Origin: Raja brachyura
Lineage: Eukaryota
NCBI GenBank assembly: GCA_963514005.1
Contig: OY740782.1
Coordinates: forward strand, 64,666,001-64,730,000
DNA: 64,000 bases
Direction: 5' to 3'
The position numbers and the translations under genes were made by a program. The notes beneath the pieces are model-generated. The model had not been told where the DNA came from. It saw only the letters and a list, made by a program, of their open reading frames with translations, and ran no database searches. Of the stretch, positions 1 to 61,762 are shown one piece after another. Numbering within the stretch: position 1 is the stretch's first letter; every line of letters starts with the position of its first letter.

Positions 1-1208
1 CCAACATCCATTACAAACCAACTGATTCCCACAGCTACCTGGACTACTCTTCCTCCCACCCTGCTTCCTGTAAGGACTCCATCCCCTATTCCCAATTCCT
101 CTGTCTACGCCGCATCTGCTCCCAGGATGAGGTGTTTCACACCAGGTCATCACAAATGTCCTCGTTCTTCCAAGAATGGGGATTCCCCTCCCGCACTATA
201 GATGAGGCTCGCACCAGGGTCTCCTCCATACCCTGCAACACTGCCCTCTCTCCCCATTCCCCCACTCCCAACAAGGGCAGAGTCCCCCTGGTCCTCACCT
301 TTCACCCCACCAGCCGGCGCATACAACAGATAGTCCTCCATCAGTTTTGCCACTTCCAACGTGAACCCTCCACTCGCCTCATCTTCACATCCCCCCCCCG
401 TCTGCCTTCCGCAAAGACCGCTCCCTCCGCAACTCCCTTGTCAATTCTTCCCTTCCCTCCCGCTCCACCCCTTCCCCGGGCACTTTCGCTTGCTACACTT
501 GTCCCTTCACCTCCCCCATCCACTCCTTTCAGGGACCCAAGCAGTCCTTCCAAGTCCGACAGAGGTTCACCTGCACCTCCTCCAACCTCATCTACTGCAT
601 CCGTTGCTCTAGATGCCAGTTGATCTATATCGGTGAGACCAAGCGGAGGCTGGGCGATCGTTTCGCCGAACACCTCAGCTTGGTCCGCAATAACCAACCC
701 AACCTCCCAGTGGCTCAGCACTTCAACTCCCCCTCCCATTCCGTATCCGACCTCTCGGTCTTGGGCTTCCTCCACGGCTAGAGTGAGCAGCACCGCAGGT
801 TGGAGGAACAGCACCTTATATTCCGCTTGGGGAGTCTGCATCCTCTGGGTTTAAACATTGAATTTTCTCAATTCTGTTAACCCTGGCTGCCTCCTCCACT
901 TCTCACCTCTCCCTCAGCCCTCGGGCCCTGGCATTCCTTCTCTCTCTATCTCTCCCCCAGCCAAGTCGCACTAGCTTCTCATTTTCACACTACAAACAGC
1001 TTACAATGGCCTGTTTCCTTTATCTTCGATACTTTTTTGCATATCTTTCATTCATTGTTCTTTATCTCTCCGCATCACCGTCTATATCTCTCGTTTCCCT
1101 GATCCCTGACCAGTCTGAAGAAGGGTCTCGACCCGAAACGTCGCCTATCTCCTTCGCCCCTTAGATGTTGCTGCACCCGCTGAGTTTCTCCAGCTTTTTG
1201 TGTAACCC
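1..1208 (+). mobile_element. Penelope-like element (Neptune-type), 3' portion: RT C-terminus, GIY-YIG endonuclease, pseudo-LTR; runs off the left edge
   Basis: Translates to HYKPTDSHSYLDYSSSHPASCKDSIPYSQFL and SNLIYCIRCSRCQLIYIGETKRRLGDRFAEHL (GIY-YIG with CxxC); frameshifted; ends in a pLTR with hammerhead motif; very similar to 46475-47380. Confidence 0.93.
1115..1142 (+). ncRNA. Minimal hammerhead-ribozyme motif in the Penelope pseudo-LTR
   Basis: CTGAAGA-A-GGGTC-TC-GACCC-GAAA-CGTC: CUGANGA box, 5-bp stem II, GAAA, palindromic ACGT stem III and UH site; stem I pairing is weak. Confidence 0.7.
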
Positions 1209-1738
1209 TTATCGGGATACACATAGCTTGGCTTGGGAACAGCTCCATCCAAGACCTCGAGAAATTGCAGAGAATTGCGGATGCAGCCCAGACCATCACA
1301 CAAACCCTCCCTTCCATTGACTCCATTTATACCTCAGCTGGCCTCAGCAAGGCCAGCAGCCTTGTTGAGGCAGCCTGTGGATGTCACACCCCTGGCCACT
1401 CCCTCTTCTCCCCTTTCCCTTCAGGCAAAGGTATAAAAGTGTGAAAACGCACAGCTCCAGATTCAGAGACAGTTTCTTCCCTGCTGTTATTACACAACTG
1501 AAGCATCCTACCACAACAAGAGAGCAGTCCTGAACTTCTATCTACCTCATTGGTGTACCTTGGACTATCTTTAATCGGACTTTGCTGGCTTTACCTTGCA
1601 CTAATCGTTAATCCCTTATCATGTATCTATACGCTCAATTGCAATCATGTGTTGCCGTTCCACTCACTGGTTAGCACGCAACAAAAATGTTTCACTGTAC
1701 CTCAGTACACGTGACATTATATTTAACTGAAACTGAAC
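1209..1738 (+). mobile_element. Rex1/Babar-type LINE 3' fragment
   Basis: Degenerate AWLGNSSIQD-EKLQRI...HPGHSLFSP..SG...RFRDSFFP C-terminal motif, then 3' UTR ending in aactga repeats. Confidence 0.75.
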
Positions 1739-7442: not shown

Positions 7443-7665
7443 AATAGTAAGATTGAACGAGAACTTACCAGTTCGAAGGTTGATCTTTATTTTATGAGGA
7501 GTCGAAGTGAGGGATTTCGTGAAGAGCCCGCCGGCGCGCATGCTCGACATACTTCAAAGTAGCGGCGTGGAGTCACAGAAACCAACAAAAGAAATGACTT
7601 CGCATAGTAAGATTGAAGTGACTAAGATTACCAGATGAAGGTGATTGAGGGTTGGGCGAGGAGGG

Positions 7666-7778
7666 CACGAAATCCCTCACTTCGACTCCTCATAAAATAA
7701 AGATCAACCTTCGAACTGGTAAGTTCTCGTTCAATCTTACTATTTCATTTCGGAGTCACGTGAGTGACTTCGTGAAGA
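7666..7778. repeat. DIRS internal complementary region (ICR)
   Basis: 7666-7744 is the exact reverse complement of 7443-7521 (79 bp); 7742-7778 is the reverse complement of 12675-12711 with one mismatch. Confidence 0.96.
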
Positions 7779-13740: not shown

Positions 13741-14280
13741 TGTGTAGGAAGGAACTGCAGATGCTGGTTTAAACCGAAGATAGACACAAAATGCTGGTGT
13801 AAATCATCGGGCCAGGCAGCATCTCTGGAGAGAAAGAAAGAGTGAAGTTTTGAGTCGGGACCCTTTTTCAGACTGAAAGTCACGGGAAAGGGGAACGAGA
13901 GATATAGAACAAACAAATTAAAGATATGCAAAAAGTAACAATGATAAAGGATTACACAAAAAGCTGGAGAAACTCAGCGGGTGCAGCAGCATCTAAGGAG
14001 CGAAGGAGATAGGCGACGTTTCTGAAGTCTGAAGAAGGGTCTCGACCCGAAACGTCGCCTATCTCCTTCGCTCCTTAGATGCTGCTGCACCCGCTGAGTT
14101 TCTCCAGCTTTTTGTGTAACCCTCGATTCTCCAGCATCTGCAGTTCCTTCTTTAACAATGATAAAGGAAGCAGGTCATTGTTAGCCGTAGCTAGGTGAGA
14201 AATAAATACATGGGTGAGTGAGGGATGGAGAGAGAGGGAATGCAGGGGTTACTTGAAGTTAGAATCAATATTCATACCCC
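13741..14280 (-). mobile_element. Older Penelope 3' end/pLTR hosting a nested fold-back mini-element
   Basis: Similar to 3728-4080; split by the insertion at 13952-14152. Confidence 0.8.
13952..14152 (+). mobile_element. Penelope-derived fold-back mini-element
   Basis: Perfect 71-bp inverted arms (13952-14022 / 14049-14119); hammerhead core in the loop; ~33-nt tail; duplication taacaatgataaagga at 13936-13951 and 14153-14168. Confidence 0.92.
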
Positions 14281-25209: not shown

Positions 25210-25430
25210 AGCAAGGAACTCAGTGGGTAAGGCATCATCCCTGGAGAACATGGATAGGTGACGTTTGAGATCGAGACCTAAAGAAGGGGGACGAAAGACA
25301 CAAAATGCTGGAGTAACTCAGCGGGACAGGCGGCATATGTGGGGAAGGGTTTGGACTCGAAATGTCACCGATCCATGTTCTCCAGGGATGCTGCCTTACC
25401 TGTGGAGTGTTCCCAGCACCGTGTGTCCTT
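25210..25430. mobile_element. Degenerate Penelope pLTR pieces in both orientations
   Basis: ccctggagaacatggataggtgac ... gtcaccgatccatgttctccaggg inverted pair; tgctggagtaactcagcggg. Confidence 0.7.
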
Positions 25431-30226: not shown

Positions 30227-30387
30227 GTATGTAGGCAGGAACTGCAAATGCTGGTTTAAATCGAAGATGGATACTAAGTGCTGGAGTAACTCAGCGGGAC
30301 AGGCAGCATCACTGGACGTTACACATTCCATCTCTCCAGAGATGCTGCCTGTCCCGCTGAGTTACTCCAGCACTTTGTGTCTATCCT
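30227..30387 (-). mobile_element. Older Penelope fold-back mini-element
   Basis: Arms agtgctggagtaactcagcgggacaggcagcatc / gatgctgcctgtcccgctgagttactccagcact; decayed 14-bp duplication 30213-30226 / 30388-30401. Confidence 0.8.
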
Positions 30388-33355: not shown

Positions 33356-33513
33356 AAGATAGACACAAAAAGCTGGAGTAATTCAGCAAGACAGGCAGCA
33401 TCTCCTGAACATCACCCATTCCTTCTCTCCAGAGATGCTGCTTGCCCTGCTGAGTTACTCTAGTTTTTTGTGTCTATCTTCCATTTCAACCAGCATCTGC
33501 AGTTCCTTCTTAC
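33356..33513 (+). mobile_element. Older Penelope fold-back mini-element
   Basis: Arms aagatagacacaaaa..ggcagcatctc / gagatgctgc..ttttgtgtctatctt; tail; acaRctaccca on both flanks. Confidence 0.78.
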
Positions 33514-36782: not shown

Positions 36783-39220
36783 ATTTTACTTCGGAGTCAC
36801 ATGAGTGACTACGTGAGGACCCCGCCAGCACGCATGCGCGACATATCATCTACCGCATTGCGCATCGACAGGCTGTGGAAGCGCTGTTCCACCAGCGGTA
36901 AGTTTGAAACCTGAAGTTTTTTCAACTTAACTCCCGGTCTGTTTTTCTCCTAGAGTTCCTGCTGGAGATATCGCGGATTCCCCTACAGCGGGGAAATCCC
37001 AGCTGTGAGAATTGCGGGGATGCCCAGCTGTGAGGGAAACCCCACCACAGACTTCGCAGGGAATTCCGTCTCCAGGGACCGTGAGGAAATCCCGGCTATG
37101 GTAAACCGGGACAACAAGAGGAATCAAGCCGCGGGGTGAACCCGGCTCGGGGAAACCCGGCTGCGGGGACCTCGGAGAAGCCAAACGCGGGTTGAACCCA
37201 GCTCGTGGGGGGGGGAAAAACCTGGCCGCGGGGACCGCGGGGAAGGCAAGCAGTGGGATGAACCCGGCTCGGGGAACCCGGCAGCGGGGACCACGGGGAA
37301 GACATGGCTGCGGACCGCAGAAGTGCGGATGGCCGGCGGCATTTTTCAGACTCCAGAGACCCAGAGAGGTTCCGCGGTGGTTCCCCAGAAAGGGGGTATA
37401 ACCAAGAGTAAGATGGATAGGAACCGCGGTGGCTCCCCAGAAAGGACAACGGAGTCTGAAAGGCCTGGGCAGGCCAGGAGGATCCCCTCCGACATGGGAA
37501 CGTCCTTGGACGTTTACCCATGTGCAGCATGAATAGCGTCAGAGAGGGCTCATCCCACTAATGCTCCATCCTGATATGGTCCATGGAATGGCATATCAGG
37601 AGAAATATACTGCCGACGGATAAGCCCAGAGACCCGGCAGGGTCCAGGCTGCGAATATACCGCCAGCGGATAAGCCCGTAGACTCGGCAGGGTTCGGGCT
37701 GGAAGGTCCCGCTTCAGGCATTTTCGTAGTGCCTGACTGGCCTATACAGCCATGATTCCCGTTGATGTTGGGAATGATGATATAACCTTATATGGTTATT
37801 TCCAGGCACAAAATTGCTGGTTAGCCATGACTGGGAAAACCACCCTCTGCATTCATAAATCAATTAATTGACTTGCAGACTGGGAAGACCGTTCCTGCGG
37901 CTAGGATTGTTAAACCAAACTATGGACGTGCTCACTGCAATTGCAGGGACACACCAAATAAGCAGTACTTCCCTCATAAGACATGGGAAGTATTTTGTTA
38001 TTACATATGTTGACACGGATAACGGACATCTTGAAGTTCAGTTCTATCTGGGGTTTGACAATCATTAATAGAGTGCCATTTACTGTGCCGCACATGCCTT
38101 CACAGCATATTGGCTGCGAGGAGCAGAATCCACTCTGTCGGGTCTCACCTTCTGATATCTAGATTATGAAGGGTATCTTCAACTCGACATTCCCCAGGCC
38201 AGGTACGCAGAGATATGGGATGTTAACATTGGAAAATCCCTGTCCTTGGCTCACTAACCAAATGGTTATGCTCATGGCGCTGATTCAGCACAACAGGTCC
38301 AGTTTTTGCATAGCTGTGACTGGACAATATGATTATTCTGCAGATAAATTACATTTATGTTATGACTTAATTAGCAGAATACACCAGGGACATTAGGTCT
38401 CAAACTAGAATTGTTGGCATATCCCATGGACCTTCGGTTGTGTGTGGCCACACATCTACACCAGTATGTAAGGTCACTAGAGCCTTAGAGACTCTGAACT
38501 AGCTATGATTGTTAGTCACATGAAGCCTCATAAGAAAATATCACTACAGACCACCTCCAGGTGGTTAATATGGGTTCTGGGATACAGGAGTGAACATTGA
38601 CATACAAGTTTCACTCCACCCAGGCTGCAACTATCTCAGCAGTAGGGGATGGACGTTTCGCGGGATCATATCCTGGCGGCTGCAGGATGGTCCAACGAAC
38701 GATCTTCCAAACATTTTAGAAATACCCTTTGCCAGACCGGGGGGTAATGGCCAACTCTATTTTAGGTCTGTGTTATAGTTCCTCCCGGTTGAGGGAGGTT
38801 ACTGTTATCATTATTTGTCCATTAATAGCATCAACATGTCTATACCTACGTCATGTCTGAATGCATTATTAAAATTCACTCTTCACTGATGCAGTGTGTG
38901 ATGCATGGACTCATCTCTACGGCATGAAATCACAAAGCTTTGAAATCTTCACGTAGTCACTCACGTGATCTTTATTTTATGAGGAGTTACGTTGAGGCAT
39001 TACGTGCCCTCCGCTCCCAACCCCCAAGGTCAACTGGTATTTTTGTTCTCTTATCTTACTATATATTTAGCCAACTTCGGTTATCTGTGATTTCACACCG
39101 CTGCTTTGAAGAATGTCGCGCATGCGTGCTGGCGGGGTCTTCACGTAATCCCTCAACGTAAGGCCTCATAAAATAAATATCAAACTTCAAACTGGTAAGG
39201 TCTCATTTATTCTTACTATT
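36783..39220 (+). mobile_element. Internally deleted, decayed DIRS element
   Basis: ITR core ~36809-36844 / 39113-39147 homologous to the first DIRS; partial ICR 38947-39006; remnants SGIFVVPDWPIQP, RPFLRLGL, MKGIFNS, MVMLMAL, HST; ATT at both ends. Confidence 0.9.
37125..37320 (+). repeat. GC-rich imperfect tandem repeat (~60-bp period) inside the DIRS derivative
   Basis: Three copies of gggNtgaacccRgctcg..ggaa.cc.gg..gcgggga.c; a second ~50-bp duplication at ~37603-37701. Confidence 0.75.
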
Positions 39221-40487: not shown

Positions 40488-40988
40488 ATTTAGAGATATA
40501 GTTTAGCAACAGGCTCTTCTGCCCACCGAGTCCACACTGACCAATGACCATCCAGACACTAGGCCTTGCGCACACAGTAGGGATAATTTACAGAACCTAA
40601 TTAACCTACATATCTGGGGTTACACAAGAAGCTGGAGAAACTCAGCGGGTGCAGCAGCATCTAAGGAGCGAAGGAGATAGGCGACGTTTCGGGTCTCGAC
40701 CCGAAACGTCGCCTATCTCCTTCGCTCCTTAGATGCTGCTGCACCCGCTGAGTTTCTCCAGCTTCTTGTGTAACCCTCGATTCTCCAGCATCTGCAGTTC
40801 CTTCTTTAATAACCTACATATCTGCATGTCTTGGGAATGTGGGAGGAAACCGGAACACCCGGAGAAAACCTATGCGCTCACAGGGAGAACGCGAAAGCTC
40901 CGCACAGACAACACCCGAGGTCAGTATCAAACTCGGGTCTCTGGTGCTGTAAGTTAGCAACTCTACAGCTGCACGACTGTGCTGCCCC
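40488..40988 (-). mobile_element. V-SINE interrupted by a Penelope palindrome
   Basis: tgtgggaggaaaccggaacacccggagaaaacc core; head at the right, tail at the left. Confidence 0.85.
40617..40809 (+). mobile_element. Penelope-derived fold-back mini-element with a 160-bp palindrome
   Basis: 79-bp perfect arms around a 2-nt spacer (40696-40697); tail; 15-bp duplication taacctacatatctg at 40602-40616 / 40810-40824. Confidence 0.93.
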
Positions 40989-55999: not shown

Positions 56000-56212
56000 A
56001 AGAAAAAACTGCAGATGCTGGAAAAATCAAAGGTAGATAAAAATGCTGGAGATACTCAGCAGGTGAGGCAGCATCTATGGAGCGAAGGAATAGGTGACGT
56101 TTCAGGTTGAGACCCTTCTTCAGTCTGAAGAAAGCCCTTGACTCGAAACGTCACATATTCCTTCGCTCCATAGATGCTGCCTCACCCGCTGAGTTTCTCC
56201 AGCATTTTTGTA
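56000..56212 (-). mobile_element. Penelope-derived fold-back mini-element
   Basis: Inverted arms turning at cttcttcagtctgaagaa; tail at the left; 15-bp duplication caccaaataaggtat at 55985-55999 / 56213-56227. Confidence 0.9.
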
Positions 56213-56279
56213 CACCAAATAAGGTATGTTCTCAAGTTTGATAAACTCCCTCCATGTGAGTCGGTTAATATGTCATGGT

Positions 56280-61277: not shown

Positions 61278-61500
61278 GTGTTAAAGAAGGAACTGCAGAT
61301 GCTGGAGAATCGAGGGTTACACAAAAAGCTGGAGAAACTCAGCGGGTGCAGCAGCATCTAAGGAGTGAAGGAGATAGGCGACATTTCGGGTCGAGACCCT
61401 TCTCCAGTCTGAAGAAGGGTCTCGACCCGAAACGTCGCCTATCTCCTTCACTCCTTAGATGCTGCTGCACCCGCTGAGTTTCTCCAGCTTTTTGTGTAAC
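61278..61500 (-). mobile_element. Penelope-derived fold-back mini-element
   Basis: 92-bp arms (2 mismatches) centred on 61408; tail at the left; 15-bp duplication caccaatagttaaga at 61263-61277 / 61501-61515. Confidence 0.93.
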
Positions 61501-61762
61501 CACCAATAGTTAAGATCCAGGCTCCACTAACTGGCGTTACTTCCTACCACACAAGCAAACAAAGCTCACTGATTTTGATATCTAACAATGCTGTTTTGCT
61601 CTCTTTGTCTCCTAAAATAAGAAATCTCACGTTTTCCCACATTACACTCCATCTGCCACATTTTAAGGTCGGAGATAGAAAGTTTTTTTAATACAAATCT
61701 AGGAAAATGGAATTGAGATAAAAGATCAGCCATTACTTCAATCAATGTTGGAGCAAATTCCT

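Follow-up and report, generated by a model that had tools for sequence, protein, structure and literature searches.

Palindromic end copies of a Penelope-like element in Raja brachyura as probable products of two annealed cDNAs

How does a retroelement come to leave its end in a genome twice, head to head, with a tail on one side only? The question is raised by a palindrome of Raja brachyura, located in the 64,000-nt stretch of DNA that we analysed (contig OY740782.1, positions 64,666,001 to 64,730,000; hereafter the window, whose own numbering is used). Its two arms of 79 bp, 40617-40695 and 40698-40776, pair without a single mismatch and are separated by TC. A 33-nt tail (40777-40809) follows the right arm only, and identical 15-bp target-site duplications enclose the insertion (40602-40616 and 40810-40824, forward strand). 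Arms, one-sided tail and duplication had all been claimed in an earlier note on this DNA and were found as described. The predicted RNA fold of the palindrome reaches -173 kcal/mol (z -26.6), and none of 200 shuffles was as good.

We use element coordinates in which +1 is the C of the hammerhead core CTGAAGA and the predicted cleavage site follows +28. On this scale the right arm with its tail spans +9 to +127 and the left arm +16 to +94, the two overlapping in a 5-nt word of stem II. The tailed arm (40691-40776, forward strand, +9 to +94) comprises stem II, GAAA and the palindromic stem III; its cleavage site is predicted to follow 40710, its putative start codon is at +51, and the core is missing. 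Its tail (+95 to +127, forward strand) lies between two inferred start sites of reverse transcription. The tail-less arm (40617-40695, reverse strand) runs from +94, where the 3' ends of young arms peak, to +16 and would represent a cDNA whose synthesis began at the inner start site with the top strand as primer. At the junction (40691-40702) the arms share the 5-nt stem-II microhomology, and the 2-nt centre is kept from the tailed arm. Since CUGAAGA is absent from both strands, the focal copy does not contain a complete hammerhead, and because the arms meet in the stem-II word neither strand retains the catalytic core. The palindrome is the ribozyme-bearing end of a Penelope-like element of about 4 kb, present as a single insertion, and an ordinary product of this abundant element, one of many thousands of stump insertions. 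The focal copy and at least seven others (L004, L005, L011, L012, L022, L166 and L331) are inserted at an identical position of an abundant short repeat, which points to a preferred target sequence.

The parent element could be followed because the arm runs on into element body at 630 places and forms tandem, pLTR-forming units of 3.93-4.05 kb at three loci (L261, L262, L263). In its ORF the reverse transcriptase matches PF00078 at E 5.8e-5, below the curated cut-off and in one frameshifted piece, and DKG and QGVAMG motifs are visible. For the GIY-YIG endonuclease, Pfam returned no match in this ORF at E 0.01; top Atlas matches of the GIY-YIG-like region score 0.96-0.97, with PF01541 in 13-22% of members, and a YIG motif is visible. 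Both regions are frameshifted throughout in the translated copy. Reverse transcriptase, C-terminal GIY-YIG-like endonuclease, tandem pLTRs and an optional 30-40-bp tail are the features of an endonuclease-bearing Penelope-like element, and the parent shows all four. A cysteine motif precedes the endonuclease, and a Zn-finger-like linker between the two domains is a feature of the Neptune/Nematis clade (PMC8557442; papers are cited here and below from their accessible parts). The putative start codon lies inside the arm, and a donor-like site near +161 and an acceptor-like site near +282 would join two open frames in phase as a putative intron; no spliced read was found in assembled RNA contigs. 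By inspection, full copies match the minimal type I hammerhead of Penelope-like elements, of the D. virilis kind (PMC4209133): they share the CUGAAGA core, an unpaired base before stem II, the G10.1-C11.1 pair, a palindromic ACGU helix III and a short, 2-bp helix I with an acceptor-like 5' end. Unlike such ribozymes the focal copy has no core, and genomic ends avoid the predicted cleavage site. Rfam searched over the window at E up to 1 gave no hammerhead, its ten matches being generic hairpins below gathering score. A hairpin that pairs +49..+56 of the arm with +104..+111 of the tail, kept in young and old subfamilies, spans the inner start site and is a candidate binding signal.

The element is very abundant. 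The 42-nt arm end of the young subfamily together with the tail occurs 15,793 times, and 100 evenly spaced 10-kb stretches (1 Mb) contain 272 arms of at least 40 nt and 39 head-to-head pairs, which by extrapolation corresponds to about 10^5 such pairs in 2.7 Gb. One stub (L049:1220-1390) has its 5' end abutting telomere-type hexamer repeats.

The window itself holds several further copies. A long 5'-truncated parent copy (1-1209, forward strand) carries the 3' part of the ORF with the endonuclease region, the 3' UTR, the full hammerhead motif and a tail-less end. Two sister fold-backs belong to the young subfamily: one at 13948-14158 (forward strand), with a tail-less arm to +21, a tailed arm to -2 and a short insert, and one at 61278-61501 (reverse strand), with its axis in CAG-W-CTG at the 5' boundary of the motif and G42A on both arms. 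The earlier note had counted four young copies turning at different nucleotides. This does not hold, since the copy at 56000-56216 (reverse strand) belongs to an older subfamily, has arms that are only 86% complementary, and has the same one-base axis as 61278, in CAG-W-CTG at the motif's 5' edge, with one substitution in 61278. Older-subfamily fold-backs with shorter arms at 30237-30385, 33356-33511 and 25214-25400 turn 3' of the ribozyme. Another inverted-repeat family, at 7443-7744 (79-bp perfect arms, 144 nt apart) and 38966-39182 (41-bp arms, 135 nt apart), is unrelated to the Penelope arm and possibly derives from a DNA transposon.

Young arms were collected from the window, the spaced 1-Mb sample, the first 30 tail-pattern loci, bystanders in other loci, 40 regions at later listed matches in the first 7 Mb of contig C1, and 30 of 109 loci carrying the focal variant described below; most of the sample lies in the initial 7 Mb of a single contig. 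For end statistics 214 of 312 young arms were kept, leaving out those picked by focal likeness or body sequence. The 3' ends of these young arms form two peaks, at +94 and at +127 to +131, which match the two in vitro start sites of reverse transcription that bracket the tail in a related system (PMC11167929). At the 5' side, 95 of the 148 arms that reach +1 stop between -4 and +1 (0.107 per nt), the density elsewhere being 0.003-0.007 per nt at +10 to +55 and 0.001-0.009 upstream; the other 53 read through. Arms without an inverted partner behave in the same way, 46 of 93 ending at -4 to +1 (0.082 per nt). Non-fold-back arms almost never end in stem II, in stem III or at the cleavage site, where their density is 0.001-0.002 ends per nt (7 of 116 at +10 to +40). 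This class still contains one old-type copy and a few fold-backs that escaped detection, and the sample as a whole retains a few nested duplicates. Among fold-back arms the interval +10 to +28 is moderately enriched in ends (15 of 84), as trimming to microhomology would produce. The same end position is found in older subfamilies, whose upstream sequence differs, and loose ends occur at matching places in contigs from two other organisms.

Genome-wide counts, obtained with search patterns of different lengths that are not strictly comparable, gave 4,511 ends at -2 (non-C base before), 2,126 at +3 and 8,669 exact read-through copies. Ribozyme cleavage was considered as the source of the 5' end and rejected, as only 306 ends, substitutions included, lie at +29 with a purine before. 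Exact copies of the focal stem-II junction number 130, compared with 1,042 of the CAG-W-CTG boundary junction. Since ends pile up at -4 to +1 in all classes, the turn is set by a boundary common to all cDNAs. It is not a property of the fold-back or of the ribozyme interior; turns in stem II are a minor class, and stem II is a 5-nt annealing site in a minority of copies. The earlier note had proposed that turn points are non-uniform, which the check bore out, and that they always lie within the ribozyme, where reverse transcription would stall or switch template. Both arm ends do fall between -7 and +28 in 31 of 45 young pairs, but in the other 14 an arm ends beyond +28 or before -10. A stall in the ribozyme is not supported: the pile-up lies beyond the entire motif for an enzyme arriving from the 3' side, it is strong in copies without any inverted arm too, and ends at the cleavage site are rare. 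The junction counts speak against turning in stem II as the rule.

The ends themselves bear on what the boundary represents. CCAGTCT lies 53 nt before the putative start codon and matches the initiator consensus YYANWYY. Untemplated inserts occur at 11 of 17 duplication-resolved ends at -3 to -1, compared with 4 of 17 at 0 to +4. Tandem copies jump from the boundary to unspliced body sequence, and several ends extend to -5 or -6 along unspliced sequence. A G precedes 52 of 100 listed ends at -2 (by eye) and 45 of 100 at the +3 control (G:A ratio, p 0.65), itself a pyrimidine-purine step and so perhaps a poor control; because the value is equally high there, a cap-derived G was not counted as support. 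Among the junction inserts at -3 to -1, only 5 of 11 end in G. We lean towards the boundary being the end of the template and likely a transcription start at the initiator-like CCAGTCT. Its sequence, a pyrimidine tract plus CAG, could also be read as a 3' splice acceptor, and in D. virilis an intron ends at this ribozyme position, the start site lying further upstream (PMC4209133, PMC2377424). Splicing to host exons was rejected as the source of the boundary, with no captured upstream exon in 72 short non-fold-back arms, and so was back-splicing, for which the loci of 363 arms yielded no junction.

An alternative that keeps two priming events would have the boundary block reverse transcription on a longer RNA, through the folded ribozyme, a bound protein or a splice-acceptor complex. 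This is the closest surviving form of the idea in the earlier note. It is consistent with the boundary coinciding with the 5' strand of helix I and the acceptor-like tract plus CAG (PMC4209133), with the roughly one third of arms and 8,669 exact copies that read through, as a leaky block would allow, and with the similar G counts at -2 and +3; a predicted sense fold pairs +1 to +11 with the tail, no better than shuffles (z -0.55). However, an enzyme moving 3' to 5' would meet the stems first, and non-fold-back arms almost never end at +10 to +40. Untemplated inserts at -3 to -1 and tandem jumps downstream are moreover typical of run-off. We consider a block unlikely. A group of short tandems (L211, L212, L214, L217, L218, L222-L226, L228-L230) has an upstream unit that continues into the body, mostly to about +200 to +270, inside the putative intron, and a next unit that begins near -3 or further upstream; these may reflect jumps onto a short RNA, shielded by protein, at its 3' end.

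The arrangement of the arms is strict. An inverted arm that stops near +94 lies next to 47 of the 113 tailed arms, and a tailed inverted arm lies next to none. After two nested duplicates were dropped, all 45 young pairs, found from the tailed arm by a sampling blind to pairs without a tail, consist of one tailed and one tail-less arm. Non-fold-back arms are of both kinds (89 tail-less, 82 tailed), so that pairing with exactly one tail departs from independent choice (p 2e-8). Of the 39 head-to-head pairs in the spaced 1 Mb, 31 have one tail motif, seven none and one two; four of the seven retain, as judged by eye, a degraded tail at one end, and three belong to a single ancient composite repeat. 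At L226 and L228 a tailed inverted arm stands beside a tandem, and the far end of the insertion is tail-less. Target duplications measure 10-19 bp, and junctions vary widely, with microhomology or short inserts. Solo copies have either end type and normal duplications. One locus shows the opposite of the usual geometry, with two long arms tail to tail and about 20 bp between them (L144; G000:C1, about 1532435-1532713), and three fold-backs have 109-155 nt of unrelated sequence between their arms (L140, L173, L182).

Inverted ends of this kind have been explained by self-priming (PMC3846280), in which a single cDNA, or an antisense RNA, folds over at a short palindrome and serves as its own template; the endonuclease would then trim one end to leave the tail. 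The junctions do coincide with self-complementary words (CAG-N-CTG or stem II), and variants are shared between the arms of a locus, but both are predicted by copying as well as by double priming; the D. virilis endonuclease is also cited as needing tail sequence for cleavage (in PMC11167929). The arm lengths separate the two. The tail-less arm extends at least 8 nt further 5' in 15 of 45 pairs, or 13 without the artefacts L180 and window 61278, and the tailed arm does so in seven. In those 13 pairs the arm without a tail, which would have to be the copy, extends past its supposed template at the centre, and copying does not allow this. Of 20 stem-II junctions examined out of 130, 11 keep the centre of the tailed arm and nine that of the tail-less arm; for 20 CAG-W-CTG junctions out of 1,042, with two duplicate pairs counted, the figures are 12 and eight. 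From the overreach and the mixed origin of the centres it follows that neither arm is a copy of the other. A tailed strand that folded back would retain its own loop in every case and could not be outgrown by its copy, and a folded-back tail-less strand would give no tail. Self-copying could be rescued only through symmetric, doubly tailed free DNA that is randomly trimmed, which solo copies do not need, and we regard it as improbable. Two cDNAs that anneal with a leftover mismatch explain arm lengths, centres and the single tail.

Arms of one pair nevertheless resemble each other. In 103 young pairs we counted 35 shared derived variants against a permutation mean of 5.2 (maximum 12 in 2,000 shuffles), in agreement with the earlier expectation, checked here, that left and right arms group by locus. 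No arm position differs by side. G42A is on both arms in 15 pairs and on one in six, T44C on both in four and on one in one. The focal arms carry one such variant, G at 40628 as the mirror of T83C, read as C at 40765 of the tailed arm; as had been noted, it is on both focal arms and missing from the copies at 1208, 3728, 13952 and 61316. It had been called private, which is incorrect: 109 tailed arms genome-wide have it, including those of the long ORF-bearing copies L249, L253 and L255. Among 101 pairs of a variant-enriched set it is on both arms in six, on the tailed arm only in eight and on the tail-less arm only in three, and it is a marker of a minor source lineage. Arm length class is likewise shared, with three pairs both long, 40 both short and two discordant (p 0.001, from only three long pairs). 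Shared variants and length class are as expected for a single RNA, and the variants would fit two RNAs from one active locus equally well. A +94 partner is present for four of 31 long tailed arms and 41 of 78 short ones, a scarcity that double priming alone does not explain.

Perfect palindromes may be repaired or mis-polished. Identity of the arms might accordingly be secondary, through gene conversion in cruciforms or assembly polishing, and 32 of the 103 young pairs are indeed perfect over +17 to +89. Against this, one-arm differences are common (144 of 7,130 positions), the shared variants are recurrent lineage markers that also occur in long and solo copies and are not unique to a locus, and the layout recurs in older, decayed subfamilies; we judge a secondary origin very improbable. 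Least credible of all is a MITE- or SINE-like family spread from one or a few palindromic masters, to which the exact recurrence of some junctions (130 and 1,042 copies) and palindromes passively amplified in other repeats or duplications (L161, L232, L238, L242, L244, L256, L346/347, L348/349, L066, L086, L094) might point: it is already contradicted for the bulk of copies by the same junctions occurring with G42A, C46T, T81C, T83C or older-subfamily arms, by widely varying junctions without any side-specific position, by the same ends in solo and long ORF-bearing copies, and by one-sided tails and 10-19 bp duplications in place of terminal inverted repeats at both ends and a fixed short duplication. 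The earlier note was thus right that the copies are separately generated integration products and not a MITE family with a single master. Two sets were nevertheless spread within other sequence: L066, L086 and L094 are one ancient head-to-head junction with shared flanks, found three times in 1 Mb as a palindrome inside another repeat, which would be a true master-copy family, and L161, L232, L238, L242, L244 and L256 are one young fold-back with a distinctive junction inside a larger multicopy sequence on several contigs.

The reading that we prefer, and hold to be probable, is that the palindrome arms are two separate cDNAs of a single insertion, annealed mid-way. The element protein would nick both target strands about 15 bp apart, and each 3' end would act as primer for reverse transcription from one of the two internal sites; the template would probably be a single RNA, neither cleaved nor spliced. 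Because the start sites are only 95-130 nt from the RNA 5' end, both cDNAs would run off the template there, likely at a transcription start at CCAGTCT. Their 3' ends would then pair at self-complementary sequence, mostly the boundary CAG-N-CTG and less often stem II, as presumably in the focal copy, and repair would fill in and retain one or the other strand at the central mismatch. Capture of a single cDNA would yield a solo stub. On this view the hairpins would arise as by-products of initiation inside the RNA, close to its 5' end, with no replicating mini-element involved. Several of these steps have a biochemical parallel: an anole Penelope-like protein, predicted to be dimeric, nicks and extends both strands in vitro with uncleaved RNA and starts reverse transcription at two sites bracketing the tail (PMC11167929). 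In that system the two strands are alike in start site (PMC11167929), so that the strict pairing of two start sites is not yet reproduced.

Much of the layout is already known. Insertions of Pen2a in Adineta vaga have an inverted 5'-truncated pLTR, a one-sided 30-40-bp tail and a target duplication (PMC3846280, PMC8557442). Focal-type insertions share with them head-to-head arms, a one-sided tail (here 33 nt), the target duplication and a junction palindrome, as well as a pLTR with the first ORF codons and partial tandems. They differ in consisting of two arm ends only, without an ORF, and in their very high copy number, and their arm geometry contradicts the self-priming reading of PMC3846280, as far as the accessible part sets it out. 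The anole element, Poseidon of Anolis carolinensis, shares the two start sites bracketing the tail shortly downstream of the hammerhead, and its in vitro reaction shares nicking and extension of both target strands and the uncleaved RNA template with double priming; inverted products and a 5' boundary are not described in the accessible part of that study (PMC11167929). In contrast to Poseidon, the element studied here has a cysteine motif before the endonuclease, and its putative start codon lies 3' of the ribozyme, not in stem II.

Two further systems invite comparison. In LINE-1 twin priming both target strands prime on RNA and the cDNAs join by microhomology, the second primer starting upstream of the stop of the first cDNA, which gives an inversion without duplication. 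Here, in contrast, the start sites are fixed 33 nt apart and both cDNAs would copy the same segment. Four long copies (L143, L169, L194, L255) have an inverted upstream ORF segment with little duplication, a LINE-1-like form. Animal non-LTR retrozymes are head-to-tail tandems thought to replicate via cleaved circles (bioRxiv 10.64898/2026.07.22.740005). Like them, the copies described here are short, non-coding, hammerhead-bearing derivatives of the pLTRs of Penelope-like elements; unlike them, they are head to head or solo, do not end at the cleavage site, include the focal copy with its missing core, and show no back-splice junction in the same 363-arm loci. The origin of the inverted repeat and tail is described as undefined in the accessible part of PMC8557442, and our literature search, which covered few subscription journals, found no paper proposing double priming for these inverted ends. 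While the layout is already published, the population data favour double priming over self-priming.

In its strictest form, which we put forward tentatively as slightly less probable than even, double priming would be obligate and asymmetric: one dimer and one RNA with a capped 5' end, +94 used on one strand and +128 on the other, the inverted pLTR with its tail arising by annealing and the tandem pLTR by run-off and a jump to unspliced RNA further downstream. If true, this would replace the published self-priming model and make the roughly 10^5 hairpins by-products. Through its very high copy number, the element has left in the genome a record of integration products by which the models can be told apart. 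For the existing in vitro system (PMC11167929) the record predicts that each start site is used once per insertion, on a single RNA, with run-off at a mappable 5' end. For the organism itself, 39 head-to-head pairs per Mb could give rise to double-stranded RNA and cruciforms in large amounts.
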